8,116 bases of DNA from Verrucomicrobiota bacterium (GCA_008932965.1 WBXG01000069.1:1-8116), one strand, 5' to 3'. Shown: positions 1 to 8,116, numbered from the stretch's first letter. The notes: generated by a model not told the origin, from the sequence alone. A program made the numbers and translations.

Positions 1-116
1 AGGGCTGCCCCCCTTCAAGCCAGGGCAGTCTCCCCCGCGGTCTCCTGACCGCCGGTGGTGCCTGCATCAGGATTCGCGGCGCTTCGCGAGCAATCAGTAT
101 GAAATATCCGAGTTAA
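1..116 (-). mobile_element. Partial copy A of the MITE-like TIR/foldback repeat family; the left part lies outside the window
   Basis: Ends with AGTATGAAATATCCGAG (96-112) plus TTAA (113-116). This is the same terminal repeat as the right ends of copies B (2411-2431) and C (6087-6106). The reverse complement of 1-116 aligns with the left two-thirds of copy C, sharing ATTTCATACTGATT, CGAA..CCTGATG, AGACTGCC and GAAGG, at roughly 55-65% by eye. It therefore appears inverted relative to B/C/D. The interior is GC-rich, unlike the flanking DNA. Hairpin CCCGCGGT-ctcctg-ACCGCCGG at 34-55. Confidence 0.6.
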
Positions 117-1331: not shown

Positions 1332-2189
1332 CTACAAAGAGGCTGTTGTTCTTTCAGTCAAGTTCGTGAGCTGGTAAATCATGGGATGAGTCGAATTAGG
1401 AAAATGACGTAGAGCTTTTTTAAAAGCACGTGCATGTTGGAATTTCCACCAAGGAGCAAAGAGTTTCATCGTTGGTGGACAAACTGGAAAAGTCTCCCCT
1501 TGGCAATGATTTATTGGAGTCGAGCAGGCTGGCCTTAGAGTGGTGGGTATGTTGAGTAAGCCTATTTTTTTTCCAGATTGAAGAAGACGAAGTAGCCACT
1601 CATCAAACATTCTATTTTCATAGCGAGGATAGAATGGGAAATCTTTTTTCAGTAACAAAGATCGACAAAAGAGGGTGCTTGGAATGATGGTGCACTGGCT
1701 GCTCCAGAGATATTCTAATGAGGGAAGGACTGCTGGATGAGGAGTTGTTTTTTTTGTGACGTTGTCCAATACAAACCCACCCGTAAAAACAAGATCTATT
1801 TCAGGATGAGCCTGAAAGTATTTTTCCACAGCAACGAGGCCCTCTGGTAAGTACTGCTCATCGGGTTGAAGAAATCCTACAAAGGCTCCCAAAATACGTG
1901 TGGTTGCTTTTTGAATCGCTTCATGAAAGGAGATATTTTTTTCTTCGACAAGGCGAAGGGTGAATCGTTGCTTCCATTTTGAAAGCTGGAGTTCTTTTGA
2001 AAGTTTACTCCATAGGTTATTAGCTTCACCAAGATGCTGAAGGATCTGTTCACTTTTAATACTGCATTGATCCGCTAGCGAAGCTACTGCACAAGGGAGA
2101 GAATCCTGGGCGTCTTCTGAATTCTCATGAATGGTAATAATAGAAAAATCCGGAGGTGTGAGTTGATGTGTTGAGATTGGAAAAGACAT
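1332..2189 (-). CDS. Hypothetical protein, divergent GT-A fold / family 2 glycosyltransferase-like
   Basis: 285-aa ORF with an ATG start. FSIITIHENSEDAQDSL...LADQ resembles the GT2 N-terminal strand (xSIIIPxxN...L.SxxxQ). AFVGFLQPDEQYLPEGLVAVEKYFQAHPEIDLVFTG resembles the GT2 'yIaFLDaDDxxxPxkL....l..nP..dlVys' DxD region, but with DE in place of DD. The assignment is by motif resemblance only. Confidence 0.45.
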   Translation of the reverse strand: MSFPISTHQLTPPDFSIITIHENSEDAQDSLPCAVASLADQCSIKSEQILQHLGEANNLWSKLSKELQLSKWKQRFTLRLVEEKNISFHEAIQKATTRILGAFVGFLQPDEQYLPEGLVAVEKYFQAHPEIDLVFTGGFVLDNVTKKTTPHPAVLPSLEYLWSSQCTIIPSTLFCRSLLLKKDFPFYPRYENRMFDEWLLRLLQSGKKIGLLNIPTTLRPACSTPINHCQGETFPVCPPTMKLFAPWWKFQHARAFKKALRHFPNSTHPMIYQLTNLTERTTASL

Positions 2190-2245: not shown

Positions 2246-2431
2246 TTAACCCGGATATTTCACACTAAATCTATTACAGCTTGTGGAAAGCTCATTATTA
2301 CTGCGTCAGCTTCGAATTGCTCCTCGGGCTGTATGAAACATACAGCTCAGCATCGCAATCCTTCGCCCACTTTGCACTCATAAGCTTTACACGGAGCCTT
2401 ATGATACTTCAGTATGAAATATCCGGGTTAA
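2246..2431 (+). mobile_element. Complete copy B (186 bp) of the MITE-like TIR/foldback repeat family
   Basis: Left end TTAACCCGGATATTTCACACT (2246-2266) is the reverse complement of right end AGTATGAAATATCCGGGTTAA (2411-2431), matching 20/21. A second long-range complementary block pairs 2283-2295 with 2380-2392 (11/13). The central hairpin is GGGCTGTATG-aaa-CATACAGCTC (2326-2348). Gap-free alignment to copy D (7963-8116) gives about 82% identity by hand count (about 27 mismatches in 154 nt). TTAA lies on both flanks. Confidence 0.75.
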
Positions 2432-2465: not shown

Positions 2466-3113
2466 ATGTTTCGCAGCTACTTTATTCACACTATGCCCGA
2501 CTTTATAACAGAACCTCATGATTTATTGGAGTTAGAAGAAGAGACCTCCATGGAAGAATTGCAAGATCAAGTACAACGCGCCCAGTCTGAGCTGGTTGAG
2601 TTAAAGCGTCGTCAAGATCAAATAGAAAAAGAAAAGTTACGACTTGAAGAACTGAGTCGGCGCCAGGAAGAGCTAGAGCGTGGACGTATTGAGATGGTTG
2701 ACAAACTCACGCGTGCTCTGCTCTTGGTGCAGCGAGAAACCGAGGAATCACAACGACGTCTCGAGCAATTGCATGGTATTCAAGATTCTTTTGCAGAACA
2801 TTTACGAGAATTAGAAAATATCGATTGTAAAAGTTGGAATGGCCGTGAATTAGCACGGGAGCTCACACGTGCTATTGGAACCGTGGATGAGGCGAAAGCT
2901 GCTTATAGTAGGGCTCAAGCCAAGATCGCTCCGATAGAGGATGCTTCTGATCTCCATGGAAGTGGAATTTCCTATAGCGACGATTTTGAATTACGAAGTC
3001 AAGGCTTCCTGTATTGGCTTCAATCGGGGGCTGCTTTCACTTTACCGTTAGTATTGCTAGGACTTGTTGCGTTACTCATCTGGAGTTGGCATTTATTAAC
3101 GGCTCCTCACTAA
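2466..3113 (+). CDS. Hypothetical tail-anchored coiled-coil membrane protein
   Basis: ORF open from TTG 2451. The in-frame ATGs are at 2466 and 2493, and the true start is not resolvable because there is no SD. It has a long charged heptad-like region (ELVELKRRQDQIEKEKLRLEELSRRQEELERGR...). A single C-terminal hydrophobic helix (AAFTLPLVLLGLVALLIWSWHLL) lies 5 residues from the stop. I recognise no family. Confidence 0.6.
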   Translation: MFRSYFIHTMPDFITEPHDLLELEEETSMEELQDQVQRAQSELVELKRRQDQIEKEKLRLEELSRRQEELERGRIEMVDKLTRALLLVQRETEESQRRLEQLHGIQDSFAEHLRELENIDCKSWNGRELARELTRAIGTVDEAKAAYSRAQAKIAPIEDASDLHGSGISYSDDFELRSQGFLYWLQSGAAFTLPLVLLGLVALLIWSWHLLTAPH

Positions 3114-3253: not shown

Positions 3254-3658
3254 ATGATCCGCCCCTCCTCTCGTTCTAAAAAATCTGTTGTGCGCCCGCT
3301 AGATACGGATCGTCAGCGTTTGCGTGATGAAGAAGAAAAAATTCGCTTGCTAGAGGAAAAAATTCGTCTTCAAGAAGAAGCTGCCCGACGCAAATTGGAG
3401 AATTTGCCAAAAGAGTTAGAAGAGAGGAAACGCCGTCAACATGAGCTTCATCGACTTCATCTTGTTTCAGCACCAACTCGTGCGGATGGATTGAGTAAGC
3501 TTCGTGATAAACGTCATCCTCTACGTCAAAAGACCATTGCTGCTTCAGGTGGTAAACGCATGGCAGAGAGGCGTGCTGCGCGCCTTCAATTTATTCTACT
3601 TTGCGTTGTGCTTGGAATTATTTTGCTGCTTCTTTGGAAATCACTTCCATCATCCTAA
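3254..3658 (+). CDS. Hypothetical tail-anchored coiled-coil membrane protein with the same architecture as 2466-3113
   Basis: ORF open from GTG 3239, with the first ATG at 3254. It has a basic/acidic coiled-coil region (RLRDEEEKIRLLEEKIRLQEEAARRKLENLPKELEERKRRQHEL). The C-terminal TM helix is LQFILLCVVLGIILLLLW, 6 residues from the stop. Confidence 0.55.
   Translation: MIRPSSRSKKSVVRPLDTDRQRLRDEEEKIRLLEEKIRLQEEAARRKLENLPKELEERKRRQHELHRLHLVSAPTRADGLSKLRDKRHPLRQKTIAASGGKRMAERRAARLQFILLCVVLGIILLLLWKSLPSS
3332..3373 (+). repeat. 2 x 21-nt in-frame tandem duplication encoding the heptads EEKIRLL/EEKIRLQ
   Basis: gaagaaaaaattcgcttgcta (3332-3352) against gaggaaaaaattcgtcttcaa (3353-3373), 16/21 identical. 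It lies inside the 3254-3658 CDS. Confidence 0.6.
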
Positions 3659-3687: not shown

Positions 3688-4725
3688 GTGTTGTACCGAA
3701 AATTAGCACGTCCTTTTTTCTTTCGGCTTGACCCAGAACTTGCCCACGAAGCGGTTATCAAAAGCCTTGCTATTACCTCCGCCTCTCCGGTGGTTGCTAA
3801 GATATTAAAAAAAGTAATCACAGCACTTGAGGGTTCTGTTCCTCTCTCTCCTCGATGCGTAGCAGGAATCGACTTTCCCAACCCAGTTGGTCTTGCTGCC
3901 GGAATGGATAAAAATGGAGTGGCCTTACTTGCGTGGGAAGCCCTTGGGTTTGGGTTTGTCGAAATAGGGACTATTACAGCGCATGCACAACCAGGAAACC
4001 CCAAGCCTCGGCTTTTTCGTTTTCCAGAAGAGGAAGCCCTCATTAACCGACTTGGATTTAATAATGAAGGAGCCACTGCGGTCGCTCATCGTTTAACAAA
4101 AACGAAGGAACAGGGTCGCTGGCCTCACATTCCCGTGGGAATTAATATTGGCAAATCCCGAGTGACTCCGATTCACGAGGCTGCAAAAGATTATCTCTTG
4201 AGCTTTCAACAACTTCATGGATTAGGAGATTATTATGTACTCAATGTCAGCTCTCCTAATACTCCTGGATTGCGTGATCTTCAGGCTAAGGAGGCCTTAG
4301 CCTCAATTGTAAAAACAGTACGTGATTGGGAAGGGACCCCTCAGAAGCCACTTTTTATTAAGGTAGCTCCTGATCTTGCAGAGGAAGATCTCATCGCTAT
4401 TGTAGCACTAGCAGAAGAAGAAAAGCTTTCCGGTCTCATTGCGACTAACACAACACTCGACCATTCGATACTTTCAAAGGAGAAGGATCAGGCTGGAGGT
4501 CTGAGTGGGATTCCTCTGGGAGCAAGATCACTCCATGCACTCCATCTTATTCGGAAGCAAACATCGCTTCCAGTGATTGCTTGTGGTGGGATTCACGATA
4601 AAGCTTCTGCTCATGAGCGTTTTCAAGCAGGAGCCAATCTTGTTCAAATCTATACTTCACTTATTTATCATGGTCCTGCAGTGATCCGTAAGATTTGTGC
4701 CTCTCTGGATCGTTGTGATTCATAG
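3688..4725 (+). CDS. pyrD: Dihydroorotate dehydrogenase (quinone), class 2
   Basis: Collinear from recall with E. coli PyrD. Matching segments are LDPELAHE, NPVGLAAGMDKNG, GFGFVEIGTIT, KPRLFR, NRLGFNNEG and GINIGK. They continue with NVSSPNTPGLRDLQ (class-2 catalytic Ser), KVAPDL, IATNTT, GGLSG, ACGGI and LVQIYTSLIY. The track ORF starts at TTG 3601 and overlaps the upstream gene by 58 nt. GTG 3688 (or TTG 3691) places 13 residues before LDPE, against 12 in E. coli, and removes the overlap. Confidence 0.9.
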   Translation: MLYRKLARPFFFRLDPELAHEAVIKSLAITSASPVVAKILKKVITALEGSVPLSPRCVAGIDFPNPVGLAAGMDKNGVALLAWEALGFGFVEIGTITAHAQPGNPKPRLFRFPEEEALINRLGFNNEGATAVAHRLTKTKEQGRWPHIPVGINIGKSRVTPIHEAAKDYLLSFQQLHGLGDYYVLNVSSPNTPGLRDLQAKEALASIVKTVRDWEGTPQKPLFIKVAPDLAEEDLIAIVALAEEEKLSGLIATNTTLDHSILSKEKDQAGGLSGIPLGARSLHALHLIRKQTSLPVIACGGIHDKASAHERFQAGANLVQIYTSLIYHGPAVIRKICASLDRCDS

Positions 4726-4733
4726 ATTTTTTC

Positions 4734-5897
4734 ATGGAACATAGACTTGCTTCAGAGCTAGCACTCTTAAAAAAGAAAAAACTCTGGCGCTCTCCAGCCT
4801 TGATAGAACGTGCTTCTGGAAGTCATCTTGTGATTGAGGGGCGTACTTTTTGTAATTTTTCTTCTAATGATTATCTCGGTTTAAGCGGTCATCCGGCGTT
4901 GCAAGAAGCCGCTCATACTGCGTGGTCTTCTTTTGGATATGGGGCCACCGCCTCACGGCTTATTTGTGGAAATACAAAAGAACATCAACTCTTGGAGGAA
5001 GAATTAGCTTCACTGAAACAAACAGAGGCAGCTCTTCTTTTTTCCTCAGGCTTTGCAGCGGCTATGGGTGCTATTTCTAGCCTCATGCAGCGGGGTGATG
5101 TGATTATTTTAGACAAGCTTGTGCATGCAAGTTTGATTGATGGAGCTCGTGCAAGTCAGGCTCTAGTGCGTGTGTTCAAACATCATGATGTAACTCAGTT
5201 AGAAGACCATTTACGTTGGGCACGGCGTACTTTTCCTTCAGGAGAGATTTTAATCATTACTGAATCGGTTTTTAGTATGGATGGAGATGTGGCTCCGCTT
5301 GAGGAGATGGTTCTGCTCAAAGAAAAATATGGAGCACTTCTTTTCGTGGATGAAGCTCATGCTATTGGGGTACGTGGATCTTCCGAAAATCGTATGGGAG
5401 GAATGATTGGAGAATTAGGACTTGCGAGTCGTATTGATATTCAAATGGGAACACTTAGCAAGGCCGTTGGGACTTCGGGAGGATATCTTTGTGCCTCACG
5501 TACGATAGTCGACTACCTCCTTCATCGTGCTCGTCCTTTTATTTATACGACTGCTGCTCCTCCCTCTCTCATAGCTGCAGCACGGGCAAGTATTGGTATT
5601 ATCAACTCTTCGGAAGGAGAGGCTCTAGTAGTTCGATTATGGAACAATATAGAGCAACTTGCCTCTTCTTTGTCTCAACAACAGCCCGAGAGCGCCATTT
5701 TACCTCTTATTTTAGGAGATGAAGAAAAGGCTCTCGTGGCAGCCCATATGCTTCGGGAGGCAGGTTATTTTGTCCCTGCTATTCGTTATCCAACGGTTGC
5801 TAAGAATAAGGCACGACTTCGTATTACAATGACAGCAACCCATACTACGGAGGAGATATCCCGATTTACTCAAGAAATAAAGCAGCTCTCCTTGTAA
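4734..5897 (+). CDS. bioF: 8-amino-7-oxononanoate synthase (alpha-oxoamine synthase family, PLP-dependent)
   Basis: 387-aa ORF with its ATG 8 nt after the pyrD stop. It is collinear from recall with E. coli BioF. Matching segments are NFSSNDYLGLS, LLFSSGFAA, TESVFSMDGDVAPL, VDEAHAIGV and the PLP lysine in GTLSKAVG. They continue with DYLLHRARPFIYTTAAPP, ILPLILGD and AIRYPTVAKNKARLRITMTATH. Other family members (Kbl, SPT) are less likely but cannot be formally excluded without a search. Confidence 0.75.
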   Translation: MEHRLASELALLKKKKLWRSPALIERASGSHLVIEGRTFCNFSSNDYLGLSGHPALQEAAHTAWSSFGYGATASRLICGNTKEHQLLEEELASLKQTEAALLFSSGFAAAMGAISSLMQRGDVIILDKLVHASLIDGARASQALVRVFKHHDVTQLEDHLRWARRTFPSGEILIITESVFSMDGDVAPLEEMVLLKEKYGALLFVDEAHAIGVRGSSENRMGGMIGELGLASRIDIQMGTLSKAVGTSGGYLCASRTIVDYLLHRARPFIYTTAAPPSLIAAARASIGIINSSEGEALVVRLWNNIEQLASSLSQQQPESAILPLILGDEEKALVAAHMLREAGYFVPAIRYPTVAKNKARLRITMTATHTTEEISRFTQEIKQLSL

Positions 5898-5948
5898 AAT
5901 CATCCTTAGAAATTTTTCCAGTTGCTCAGAGAGTTTTTTACGATTACT

Positions 5949-6106
5949 TTAACCCGCACATTTCATACTGATTCTGCTGCGGCTTGCGAACACCTGATGG
6001 ATAACGACACTAGCTGTAGAAGTACAGACTGCCTGAGGAAGGCCTCGAGATCAACACAGCATCCACACCAGCTTTTACTGGTGATAAGTATGAAATATTC
6101 AGGTTA
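5949..6106 (+). mobile_element. Complete copy C (158 bp) of the MITE-like repeat family, second subfamily
   Basis: Left end TTAACCCGCACATTTCATACT (5949-5969) and right end AGTATGAAATATTCAGGTTAG (6086-6106) form the family TIR. The interior is homologous to the reverse complement of copy A and only weakly to B/D, for example GCGGCTTGCGAACACC against ACAGCTTGTGGAAAGC. The central hairpin is CTGTA-gaag-TACAG (6014-6027). The flanks are TTAA and TTAG. Confidence 0.7.
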
Positions 6107-6182
6107 GGGGTCATAGCTCAGTTGGTAGAGCGCCTCAATGGCATTGAGGAGGTCTGGGGTTCGAATCCCCATGGCTCCACCA
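6107..6182 (+). tRNA. tRNA-Ala (anticodon GGC), 76 nt with genomically encoded CCA
   Basis: Hand-folded cloverleaf. Acceptor stem: GGGGTCA/TGGCTCC, with the G3:U70 alanine identity pair. D arm: GCTC-AGTTGGTA-GAGC. Anticodon arm: CCTCA-AT[GGC]AT-TGAGG. Variable loop: AGGTC. T arm: TGGGG-TTCGAAT-CCCCA. The discriminator is A73, followed by CCA. Confidence 0.95.
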
Positions 6183-6212
6183 GAATAATCGTTATTTCTA
6201 AAGTGAGGGACC

Positions 6213-6242
6213 TTGACTGTGAGAAATCCCAAGCCCTATTAT
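6213..6242 (+). promoter_or_regulatory. Candidate sigma70-type promoter for umuDC: TTGACT - 18 nt - TATTAT
   Basis: TTGACT (6213-6218) matches the -35 consensus 5/6 and TATTAT (6237-6242) matches the -10 consensus 5/6, with an 18-nt spacer. The -10 ends 5 nt before the umuD ATG (6248), which implies a leaderless or near-leaderless transcript. This is a sequence match only. Confidence 0.35.
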
Positions 6243-6247
6243 CAAGC

Positions 6248-6676
6248 ATGGAAATCTCCTCCCCCATCCCTTTTCAAGTACGTACATCGCTCCGGATTCC
6301 CATGGTCACAGCCAAGGTTGAAGCCGGATTTCCCTCACCAGCAGATGACCATATGGAGCGGTCGATCGATCTTAACGAAGAGTTGATTGGCAATCCTGCA
6401 GCAACTTTCTTTGTGCGGGTCAGTGGAGATTCTATGAGGGATGCCAATATCCATTCTGGAGATATTCTGGTGATTGATCGCTCTCTCACCCCTAAGGATC
6501 GTCAGATTGTTGTGGCGATGATTGATGGGGAGTTTACGGTGAAACGGTTTCGGAGAACAAAAGACCGTATCTTCCTTGAAGCAGAAAACCCAGCTTTCCA
6601 TCCTATCGAGGTAGGAGAAAATCAGGAGCTCACTATTTGGGGAGCTGTTACCTTTGTGATTCATCGGGCTAAGTAA
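6248..6676 (+). CDS. umuD: UmuD-like S24 peptidase, the translesion polymerase V accessory subunit
   Basis: 142 aa counted from ATG 6248. It is collinear with E. coli UmuD: VEAGFPSPADDHMERSIDLNEELIGNPAATFFVRVSGDSMRD...GDILVIDRSL...IDGEFTVKRF. The Ala26-Gly27 self-cleavage site and the Ser62 (GDSM)/Lys99 (FTVK) dyad are present, and there is no N-terminal HTH. The upstream part of the track ORF (6122-6247) overlaps the tRNA and is rejected. Confidence 0.85.
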   Translation: MEISSPIPFQVRTSLRIPMVTAKVEAGFPSPADDHMERSIDLNEELIGNPAATFFVRVSGDSMRDANIHSGDILVIDRSLTPKDRQIVVAMIDGEFTVKRFRRTKDRIFLEAENPAFHPIEVGENQELTIWGAVTFVIHRAK

Positions 6677-6678
6677 CC

Positions 6679-7962
6679 ATGAGTACACATCGTTTTGCTC
6701 TTGTGGATTGCAATAACTTTTTCTGCTCCTGCGAGAGAGTCTTTAACCCACGACTTCATAAGGCTCCTATCGTTGTTTTGAGTAATAACGATGGATGTAT
6801 TATCTCGCGTAGCCAAGAAGCGAAAAATCTAGGGATTCCAATGGGGGCCCCTCTTCATGAGCAGCAGGAAGTGATTCAAAAAAATAGAGTGCATGTCTTG
6901 AGTTCTAACTACACCCTCTATGGTGATATGTCTGCTCGGGTGATGTCGATTTTACGAGAGGAGGTCTCAGCAGTTGAAGTCTACTCGATTGATGAAGCAT
7001 TCCTGGAGCTTCCTGAAAAATTTGATGAAAAGGCTGCCAGCAATCTTCGAGCAAAGGTGTTACGATGGACTGGCATCCCTGTCTGCATAGGCATGGGAAC
7101 TACAAAGCTCCTTGCGAAATTCTCTAATCACTATGCAAAGAAAAATCCCTGTTTTGGTGGTATTGTTGAATTAGAAAATCATCCCTTTTTCAATGATATC
7201 ATGGCTTCTACTCGCACAGGTGATCTATGGGGAGTAGGAAAAAATCTTGAACGAAGGCTCCAACATCTTGGGATTACAACAGTCTTAGAGTTCAAAAATG
7301 CCAATCCTGCTTCTATTAGAAAGGAGTTGGGGGTCGTAGGAGAAAGACTTCTTCGAGAGTTAAATGGAATCTCCTGTATGAGTTTAGAAGAGATACCTCC
7401 AGCTCGCAAGGGAGTCATGGCTTCTAGATCTTTTGGGAGTTCTGTAGAGTCTCTCGAGGAGCTTGAAGAGGCTCTTGCCAACCATGTGGCTCGTGCTTCT
7501 GAAAAAATTCGGCGCTTCGGACTACTGGCATCGCACCTTCAAGTCTCTCTTCAGACCAATCGTTTTAAAAAAGAAGAACCACAGTATGCTCCTACAATAG
7601 AACATGCTCTCCTTACTCCTACGGCTTCCACTTCCCAATTAATGAATGTTGCACGGAGGATGCTTAGCTCGATCTACCGCTCAGGATACCGCTACAAGAA
7701 AACGGGAATTTTTCTTGGAGGATTAGTTTCTGAGGATTCCTTTCAACCGAGCCTTTTTGATATTCCAGTCACAAATCCAAGGGGTGATATTGATAAAATT
7801 TGTGATGCGATCAACAAGAAGCTAGGAGATCCCAAGAACCCAATGATTACACGTGCTTCCCAGGGAACTAAACAATCCAGTAAAGGATGGAAAATGAGAT
7901 CTCAAAGGCGTTCCCCTCGCTACACAACCGATTGGAGAGAACTTCCCATAGCAAGAATCTAG
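6679..7962 (+). CDS. umuC: Y-family DNA polymerase, UmuC (Pol V catalytic subunit)
   Basis: 427-aa ORF whose ATG lies 2 nt after the umuD stop. FALVDCNNFFCSCERVFNPRL..APIVVLSNNDGCIISRSQEAKNLGIPMGAP matches the UmuC N-terminus (catalytic Asp). SIDEAFL provides the catalytic Asp-Glu, and LWGVGK is present. The C-terminal SPRYTTDWRELP motif is typical of full-length UmuC/MucB proteins. Confidence 0.9.
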   Translation: MSTHRFALVDCNNFFCSCERVFNPRLHKAPIVVLSNNDGCIISRSQEAKNLGIPMGAPLHEQQEVIQKNRVHVLSSNYTLYGDMSARVMSILREEVSAVEVYSIDEAFLELPEKFDEKAASNLRAKVLRWTGIPVCIGMGTTKLLAKFSNHYAKKNPCFGGIVELENHPFFNDIMASTRTGDLWGVGKNLERRLQHLGITTVLEFKNANPASIRKELGVVGERLLRELNGISCMSLEEIPPARKGVMASRSFGSSVESLEELEEALANHVARASEKIRRFGLLASHLQVSLQTNRFKKEEPQYAPTIEHALLTPTASTSQLMNVARRMLSSIYRSGYRYKKTGIFLGGLVSEDSFQPSLFDIPVTNPRGDIDKICDAINKKLGDPKNPMITRASQGTKQSSKGWKMRSQRRSPRYTTDWRELPIARI

Positions 7963-8116
7963 CCCGCATATTTCACACTAAATCTATTACGGCTTGTGGA
8001 AAGCTTATCATCACTGCGTTGGTCTCGAATTGTGATTTGGGCAGTATGAAACATACAGCCCGGCATCCCAATCCTTCGTCCGCCTTGTACTAATAAGCTT
8101 TGCACGGCGCCTCATA
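7959..8116 (+). mobile_element. Partial copy D of the MITE-like repeat family, B subfamily; the right ~27-30 nt lie outside the window
   Basis: The core begins CCCGCATATTTCACACT at 7963, directly after the umuC stop TAG (7960-7962); the flanking tetranucleotide is CTAG (7959-7962). It aligns gap-free to B 2250-2403 at about 82% identity. The central hairpin is GGGCAGTATG-aaa-CATACAGCCC (8039-8061). Confidence 0.7.

Follow-up and report, generated by a model that had tools for sequence, protein, structure and literature searches.

The window, i.e., the whole stretch of DNA that was analysed (8,116 nucleotides, sequence WBXG01000069.1 of the Verrucomicrobiota bacterium assembly GCA_008932965.1), harbors protein-coding genes, one tRNA gene and four copies, referred to as A, B, C and D, of a short repeat bounded by TIRs. 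The features are the following:

18-112, plus strand: copy A, a one-ended variant of about 95 bp, AGCCAGGGCAGTCTCC...CAGTATGAAATATCCGAG, recognised by its TIR match, with the right TIR at 96-112
113-116, unstranded: TTAA, the target-site 4-mer on the right of A, read from the sequence
157-1326: RlmI-like methyltransferase gene
1332-2189, minus strand: hypothetical gene
2246-2249, unstranded: TTAA, left target-site duplication of B
2250-2427, plus strand: copy B, a 178-bp type-1 putative MITE with a full-length foldback
2326-2348, plus strand: central hairpin of B, GGGCTGTATG-AAA-CATACAGCTC, the core conserved family-wide
2428-2431, unstranded: TTAA, right target-site duplication of B
about 2466-3113: hypothetical gene
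about 3254-3658: hypothetical gene
ending at 4725: dihydroorotate dehydrogenase gene
4734-5897: 8-amino-7-oxononanoate synthase-like (BioF-like) gene
5949-5952, unstranded: TTAA, left flank of C
5953-6103, plus strand: copy C, a variant of 151 bp bounded by TIRs (5953-5969 and 6087-6103), its left arm being of the 'c' type
6104-6107, unstranded: TTAG, right flank of C, whose last base is base 1 of tRNA-Ala
6107-6182, plus strand: tRNA-Ala(GGC) (ARAGORN; Rfam RF00005, 66.5 bits), adjoining C and outside the element
6248-6676: umuD-like gene (Peptidase_S24)
6679-7962: umuC-like gene (IMS, IMS_C, DUF4113)
7959-7962, unstranded: CTAG, left target-site duplication of D, which includes the stop codon TAG (7960-7962) of the umuC-like gene
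7963-8116, plus strand: copy D, a type-1 putative MITE cut by the window end, with the left TIR at 7963-7979 and the central hairpin at 8039-8061

The proteins encoded at 2466-3113 and 3254-3658 have no Pfam match; they are charged and heptad-like, with a hydrophobic stretch at the end, and may be membrane-anchored coiled-coil proteins.

The terminus CCCGNATATTTCAYACT (17 nt, up to two mismatches allowed) is found six times in the window, at 96-112 (-), 2250-2266 (+), 2411-2427 (-), 5953-5969 (+), 6087-6103 (-) and 7963-7979 (+), versus no match in 200 dinucleotide-preserving shuffles of the window; the four repeats are thus a true family, as the original prediction had it. The gene calls and the tRNA place every copy (4/4) between genes, and the elements (95-180 bp) are overlapped by mechanical ORFs of 50-61 aa alone, in agreement with the two further claims that all copies are intergenic and that none carries a conserved ORF. 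Other points stood in part. The copies are where they had been placed, but the outer TTAA or CTAG that had been counted within their bounds is the target-site duplication and lies outside the repeat. The segment 1-116, which had been read as a partial copy, does contain a copy, but this is the one-ended variant at 18-112 and not a truncated B-like element. Finally, the termini are indeed shared: B (2247-2402) and D (7960-8115) have 83% identity across 156 nt, and the part that A and C have in common with B and D is the terminus alone, about 20-25 nt. At least three sub-types are present among the copies A-D.

In copy A, the 3' half corresponds to the 'c' right arm, and the left arm of C is the 'c' left arm. 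The 95-bp unit of A, flanked by TTAA, is also located at 3686-3779 of L001 and 321-416 of L005 (L numbers denote the loci examined). The left flank of A in the window (14-17) is a degenerate TTCA, and in L005 the equivalent bases read TTAA; bases 1-17 of the window are a different upstream sequence, common to L005, and the segment 1-93 has no match at the same site in L001, L002 and L004.

Copy B, whose TIRs lie at 2250-2269 and 2408-2427, has an identical copy at L001 7517-7694. Its terminal arms (2246-2269 with 2408-2431) show 92% complementarity across 24 nt, and the end-to-end fold has an energy of -62.2 kcal/mol (z = -7.0), which bears out the foldback that had been proposed for it; the two inner levels of pairing, namely the 11/13 block of 2283-2295 with 2380-2392 and the ten-pair central stem of 2326-2335 with 2339-2348, proved correct on direct reading, the stem including one G-T pair. 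In C, the complementarity of the terminal arms is 83% across 23 nt; beyond its termini C folds weakly (z = -2.8), and its central hairpin is degenerate (CTGTA-GAAG-TACAG, 6014-6027). D in full is 178 bp long, as at L001 13230-13407, where the right CTAG is at 13408-13411. It is closer to a copy from a different locus, in the Tobar2m-G38 MAG (L203 16147-16302; 95.5% identity), than to B (83%).

Public gene calls of 49-53 aa are located inside elements (L003 190-339 and 5826-5987; L203 11254-11415 and 16131-16280), and mechanical ORFs of 51-68 aa lie in the window copies (2228-2383, 2281-2445, 5922-6107 and 7887-8093). Such small gene calls inside elements are almost certainly spurious. The possibility that the repeats are integron attC sites was discarded, since housekeeping genes lie between the copies and the ends do not match the attC core.

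The BioF-like protein of the window has an exact match on 20 metagenome or MAG contigs, whose sources are named Verrucomicrobia, Verrucomicrobiota or Chthoniobacterales; the host is a low-GC lineage of Chthoniobacterales, common, uncultured and living in freshwater. Identity to the window is about 98.5% for the sister-strain loci L001-L006, 92% for L205 and 90% for L203 (MAG Tobar2m-G38). The loci of this lineage carry one TIR per 1.1-1.9 kb; as an example, the 21-kb sister-strain locus L001 contains 20 TIR matches. A scan with AGTRTGAAATATNCGGG, performed on one genome per species, retrieved at least 108 stretches, mostly from Verrucomicrobiota MAGs and belonging to Chthoniobacterales/'Spartobacteria', Opitutaceae, Pedosphaerales and other Verrucomicrobiota. 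Many contigs per MAG were matched in Kiruna_bin-02438, Tobar2m-G38 and OTE_88, and, among the matches listed, single MAGs have at least dozens of contigs with copies; the scattered single matches in unrelated phyla are read as chance. The pairing of left and right termini gave 73 distinct complete elements. Most are close to 176-180 bp in length, and minor groups measure 151, 122-143 and 200-300 bp. The copies occur in both orientations.

Both extremities of the window fall within copies, and many related contigs break off at a TIR (e.g., L204 and L207), a pattern that might also be produced by chimeric contigs joined at a spurious repeat. The probability of such an assembly artefact is practically nil: the same gene-element-gene junctions are found in independent ENA, JGI, NCBI and Logan assemblies, the copies differ from each other by orderly substitutions, and breaks at repeats are expected from a real repeat family. 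Evidently, the repeat family breaks these short-read assemblies. The end of L002 is also located at a copy.

The target-site duplication was assessed on the 73 distinct complete elements, i.e., 146 flanks, from the loci examined. The flanking 4-mer is TTAA in 49 cases, CTAG in 48, CTAA in 15 and TTAG in 12, so that 124/146 flanks correspond to YTAR. The left and right 4-mers are equal in 40/73 elements (about 18 expected from the 4-mer frequencies), and when the equal flanks are not palindromic they are always direct (CTAA/CTAA in four elements, TTAG/TTAG in one and GTAA/GTAA in one) and never inverted (0). Tandem neighbours have exactly one YTAR-type 4-mer between them. The comparison of two sister strains (alignment A3) gives the clearest example: in L003, ...GAATAGCGTTAA is followed by a type-1 element, and in L001, ...GAATAGCGTTAA is followed by a 176-bp type-2 element, TTAA and then the type-1 element. 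L001 is thus L003 plus exactly 180 bases, corresponding to the 176-bp element and a second TTAA. The equal and direct 4-mers, together with this difference of 176 + 4 bases, imply that the TTAA at 2246-2249 and 2428-2431 is a duplicated target and not part of the repeat. In addition, L205 harbors a full element where L001 and L203 hold a 20-bp remnant, consisting of the TIR plus GGG (L001 14407-14426; L203 12482-12501). Some flanks are unequal on the two sides, e.g., TTAA/TTAG for C, and these need later mutation or recombination.

At the site of B, the 90%-identical relative L203 has CTAACCCGGATACTCAAAACCGAGTCTA alone (5708-5745), which looks like a short remnant or footprint with the first 8 nt of the TIR. 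The stop codon (TAG) of the umuC-like gene lies within the CTAG of D, and elements in L046, L069, L095 and L107 start exactly one base past the stop of a long ORF. Stop codons thus seem to provide YTAR targets frequently, which fits a target containing TAA or TAG.

Since all flanks are centred on TA, it might be proposed that the repeats are IS630/Tc1-mariner-type MITEs (Correia-like), inserted at TA with a 2-bp duplication, and that the outer bases represent a target preference. CTAG is the classical IS630 target, and the unequal 4-mers share TA alone, both in C and in the CTAG/TTAA pairs. Nevertheless, this origin is extremely unlikely. A 2-bp TA duplication is rejected by the flank count, with its 40 identical pairs and its excess of direct over inverted ones (6 versus 0), and by the strain polymorphism, both of which give a duplication of 4 bp; furthermore, every transposase detected between these ends in the loci examined is of the IS1380 type, and no IS630-type gene was observed beside a TIR.

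A full-length IS with the same termini, which the original prediction had suggested looking for, does exist: it is an IS1380-type element of 1.8-2.0 kb with a single ORF, found in three Verrucomicrobiota MAGs (L043, L070 and L111) and in dozens of metagenome contigs among the loci L115-L202. In L043 the termini are 1801 bp apart (4916-6716), are both flanked by CTAG and surround an ORF of 392 aa matching PF13701 (E = 2.7e-97) and the curated IS1380 model NF033539 (244 bits, cut-off 180 bits); in L070 and L111 the IS1380 transposase gene adjoins a TIR. A metagenome search based on the protein only retrieved 323 relatives, 80 of which were kept. Most of those with at least 57% identity have the same termini at fixed distances from the ORF, the left TIR being located 122-128 or about 371-430 bp upstream and the right TIR about 216-251 bp downstream. 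Both ends are present in 23 loci, 18 of which have the same 4-mer on the two sides, mostly CTAG, with two cases of TTAG/TTAG and one of CTAA/CTAA. The best intact copy lies in L162 (160-2177): it is 2018 bp long, with a CTAG duplication and a transposase of 480 aa (NF033539, 362 bits, profile positions 2-418 of 419), and its GC content (46%) is close to that of the window. An identical protein occurs in several different flanks, and more than 8000 homologues were retrieved with E <= 1e-50. The relatives of L162, both exact and near, lie on contigs of 2-4.5 kb, which give no taxonomic anchor for the low-GC IS. Compared with the L162 protein, the one encoded in the Pedosphaerales MAG (L043 5321-6499) aligns in two pieces (residues 8-336 and 410-479); it has therefore lost an internal part and is probably inactive. 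The transposases share no more than 50% identity with the IS1380-family genes of 72,556 plasmids, and the IS therefore appears to be a distinct IS1380 lineage without a name.

The short elements and the IS have the same terminal consensus (CCCGgATATTTCAtACT and CCCGgATATTTCAtAc, respectively), i.e., CCCGG...CCGGG with 4-bp flanks. IS1380 and piggyBac reportedly have 4-bp duplications and 5'-CC..GG-3' termini in common (PMC10045372). The interiors of the short elements and of the IS have only the ends of about 20-25 bp in common, so the former are not simple deletion derivatives of the latter. A tblastn search with two transposases covered the window, the sister-strain loci and 8-kb stretches around TIR matches in the MITE-rich MAGs, all from short assemblies broken by the repeats; it detected an IS1380 transposase gene in L043, L070 and L111 and in no other of them. 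The contigs of the window lineage gave no transposase gene, and mobilisation of the elements in trans is therefore an inference, as is their present-day activity.

With these data, the checks that accompanied the original prediction can be evaluated. Further copies are many, both in sister strains and in Verrucomicrobiota MAGs; the copies are not fragments of an IS, given that about 20 bp at the ends is all they have in common with it; and occupied and unoccupied sites, differing by an element with a 4-bp duplication, coexist between strains. The view that the repeats form a mobile family, non-coding and intergenic, densely spaced and bounded by TIRs, comparable to Correia/RPE/ERIC, is supported by the additional copies and by the insertion polymorphism, and was essentially right.

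An affiliation to the IS5 family has also to be considered. IS5 elements target YTAR and generate a 4-bp duplication, exactly the target and duplication described here. However, that these are IS5-family MITEs is scarcely credible: the transposases score 362 and 244 bits on the IS1380 model (cut-off 180), versus 19 bits on the IS4-type model, whose cut-off is 152, and the CC...GG termini are the signature of IS1380/piggyBac (PMC10045372).

Concerning the internal structure, 43 elements of 175-182 bp align over the full length with a mean identity of 73% (alignment A2). The TIRs and a 22-bp central hairpin, GGGCAGTATG-N3-5-CATACAGCCC, are nearly invariant in this alignment, and the hairpin repeats the 7-mer CAGTATG found at the inner border of the TIRs. 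In the loci of the short elements the hairpin is present 69 times, and a search of the IS loci gave 0 occurrences. The arms between the TIR and the centre comprise at least three complementary pairs, and chimeric combinations are present, some of which break the foldback. A second sub-type folds with -74.6 kcal/mol (z = -8.8). When the aligned elements are projected on the fold of B, 74.7% of the cells are paired, versus 31-42% with the partners slid, and double-change cells are 140 versus 73 in shuffles, both counts being biased by the relatedness of the copies and by the use of the structure of B. The excess of paired cells and of double changes indicates that the foldback is a family trait; the consensus obtained with RNAalifold on the 43-sequence alignment is poor (-4.8 kcal/mol) because the arm sub-types align with indels.

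These features might suggest that the copies are instead host-encoded, immobile structural repeats or structured ncRNAs (REP/BIME/ERIC-like), kept for transcript stabilisation, termination or protein binding, and that the likeness to IS ends is secondary. Besides the strong foldback and its maintenance across sub-types, the central hairpin, absent from the IS, is as conserved as the TIRs; C and D are kept in relatives at 90-92% identity; and C abuts a tRNA gene. Indeed, C ends one base before tRNA-Ala, an abutment kept in L203 and L205 (90-92% identity), and as the space between the two is too small for a separate promoter, the tRNA must be transcribed through or from within C. Nevertheless, this reading is very unlikely overall, and as the sole explanation it is already refuted by the insertion polymorphism with target duplication. 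It is also at odds with the tandem and nested insertions, with the ends identical to those of a transposase-bearing IS and with the chimeric copies in which the foldback is broken. Moreover, the orientation of the copies relative to neighbouring genes is random (17 versus 19, on crude ORF calling, whose flags for overlap with an ORF are unreliable). At E <= 1, the only Rfam 15 match in the whole window is tRNA-Ala, with none for the copies, and a scan for sigma-70-like promoters and intrinsic terminators scored none inside any copy. The orientation count, the Rfam search and the scan thus give no indication of a host role. A secondary use of some copies by the host is possible.

The strong conservation of the central hairpin is not accounted for by a purely parasitic model. 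It is conceivable, if rather unlikely, that the central hairpin and the foldback kept by the arms could form a functional module, making the family more than a passive parasite; the module could be an internal site for the transposase or for a host protein, driving arm exchange and same-site replacement, or an RNA/DNA hairpin put to use by the host in the spacers between genes. Same-site replacement might proceed by a piggyBac-like precise excision followed by re-insertion at the regenerated TTAA; alternatively, the hairpin might represent an insulator or a processing site upstream of tRNA-Ala.

The comparison of strains revealed different histories at different sites. The sites of C and D are occupied in all the relatives examined, down to 90% identity, and these two insertions are therefore old; even so, the left 50 nt of C are replaced between the window and L203/L205, where the orthologues of C are 170 bp long with a swapped left arm. 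At the site of B, strains 98-99% identical to each other carry a type-1 element (window, L001, L002 and L004), a type-2 element (L003), or an A-type unit plus a type-2 element (L005 and L006). At the site of A, the window has the A-type unit and L001 a type-2 plus a type-1 element. Gene order changes exactly at element positions in L003, L004, L005, L203, L205 and L206. Different genes precede the same downstream gene, and the copies look like recombination breakpoints. The breaks in order upstream of window positions 157 and 2246 correspond to L003 1-145, L004 1-3018, L005 1-420, L203 4800-5760, L205 4400-5740 and L206 3050-8233. A nested cluster is located at L001 3432-3810, in which an inverted type-2 copy, lying at a CTAG inside an outer element, splits the latter and is followed by TTAA, a 95-bp A-type unit and CTAA.

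On the whole, the repeats are very probably a family of MITEs with IS1380-type ends, mobilised in trans. They are elements of 95-180 bp without coding capacity, bounded by the TIRs of about 20 bp, 5'-CCCGGATATTTCATAC...GTATGAAATATCCGGG-3', of an IS1380-family IS that is widespread among Verrucomicrobiota and among metagenomes from soil and freshwater. A DDE transposase of the IS1380 family, provided in trans from a full-length copy of 1.8-2.0 kb, would recognise the ends, cut at the CC...GG termini and integrate the element at YTAR (TTAA, CTAG, CTAA or TTAG), duplicating it on both sides. Since YTAR contains TAA or TAG and is frequent in AT-rich spacers, insertion would occur between genes, often landing exactly on a stop codon, as in the case of D, or on the duplicated target of a copy inserted before, which would give rise to tandem and nested arrays. 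The copies would then evolve by exchange of arm modules and act as dispersed homology where the gene order of strains differs.

The family can be compared with several known systems. Its partner IS matches the transposase models of the IS1380 family (e.g., IS1380, IS1247 and ISEcp1), and the CC...GG termini and the 4-bp duplication are those reported for that family, but the window holds gene-less derivatives alone and the target is strongly YTAR; for comparison, IS1247 is 1672 bp long and has a 5-bp duplication (PMC3281130). Like Correia, RUP, Nezha and other IS630-type MITEs, the window copies are short, high-copy, intergenic and TIR-bounded foldbacks, with TA-containing targets, a hairpin in the transcript and mosaic sub-types. 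Correia/RUP/Nezha-type MITEs, however, duplicate TA and are tied to IS630/Tc1-type enzymes, whereas the family described here has a 4-bp duplication, an IS1380 partner, no sequence relation to them and a host of another phylum. ERIC, BIME/REP and RPE, compared here by description only, are likewise intergenic, palindromic and numerous. REP/BIME units are 20-40 bp long and tied to RAYT transposases, and RPEs are often located inside genes; none of these repeats is known to have a YTAR 4-bp duplication or the termini of the window family. A 4-bp TTAA-type duplication and CC...GG ends are also found in piggyBac and its MITEs, a superfamily distantly related to IS1380 (PMC10045372). However, piggyBac belongs to eukaryotes and inserts strictly at TTAA, whereas CTAG and TTAA are equally frequent in the window family; precise excision is the hallmark of piggyBac.

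No earlier description of IS1380-derived MITEs or of this family was found in the part of the literature that was searched. The MITE family is apparently undescribed, but the kind of element is well known, and it is not a new kind of system. Its recognition gives a name to the repeat that fragments the assemblies of a common uncultured freshwater lineage of Chthoniobacterales, accounts for the spurious small gene calls inside the elements and provides a marker for strain typing and for rearrangements between strains. The MITEs are linked to IS1380 elements, which are relatives of piggyBac in bacteria, and their clear TTAA/CTAG 4-bp target may also help in studying target choice in the superfamily.

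Two gene arrangements can be mentioned besides. The umuD-like/umuC-like pair (6248-7962), together with the tRNA, is bracketed by C and D, so that an operon for an error-prone polymerase stands between two copies of a mobile element. A HicA/HicB toxin-antitoxin pair is located at L001 18476-19008, just downstream of a tandem pair of elements; L205 is without this pair and has a transpeptidase gene at that position.
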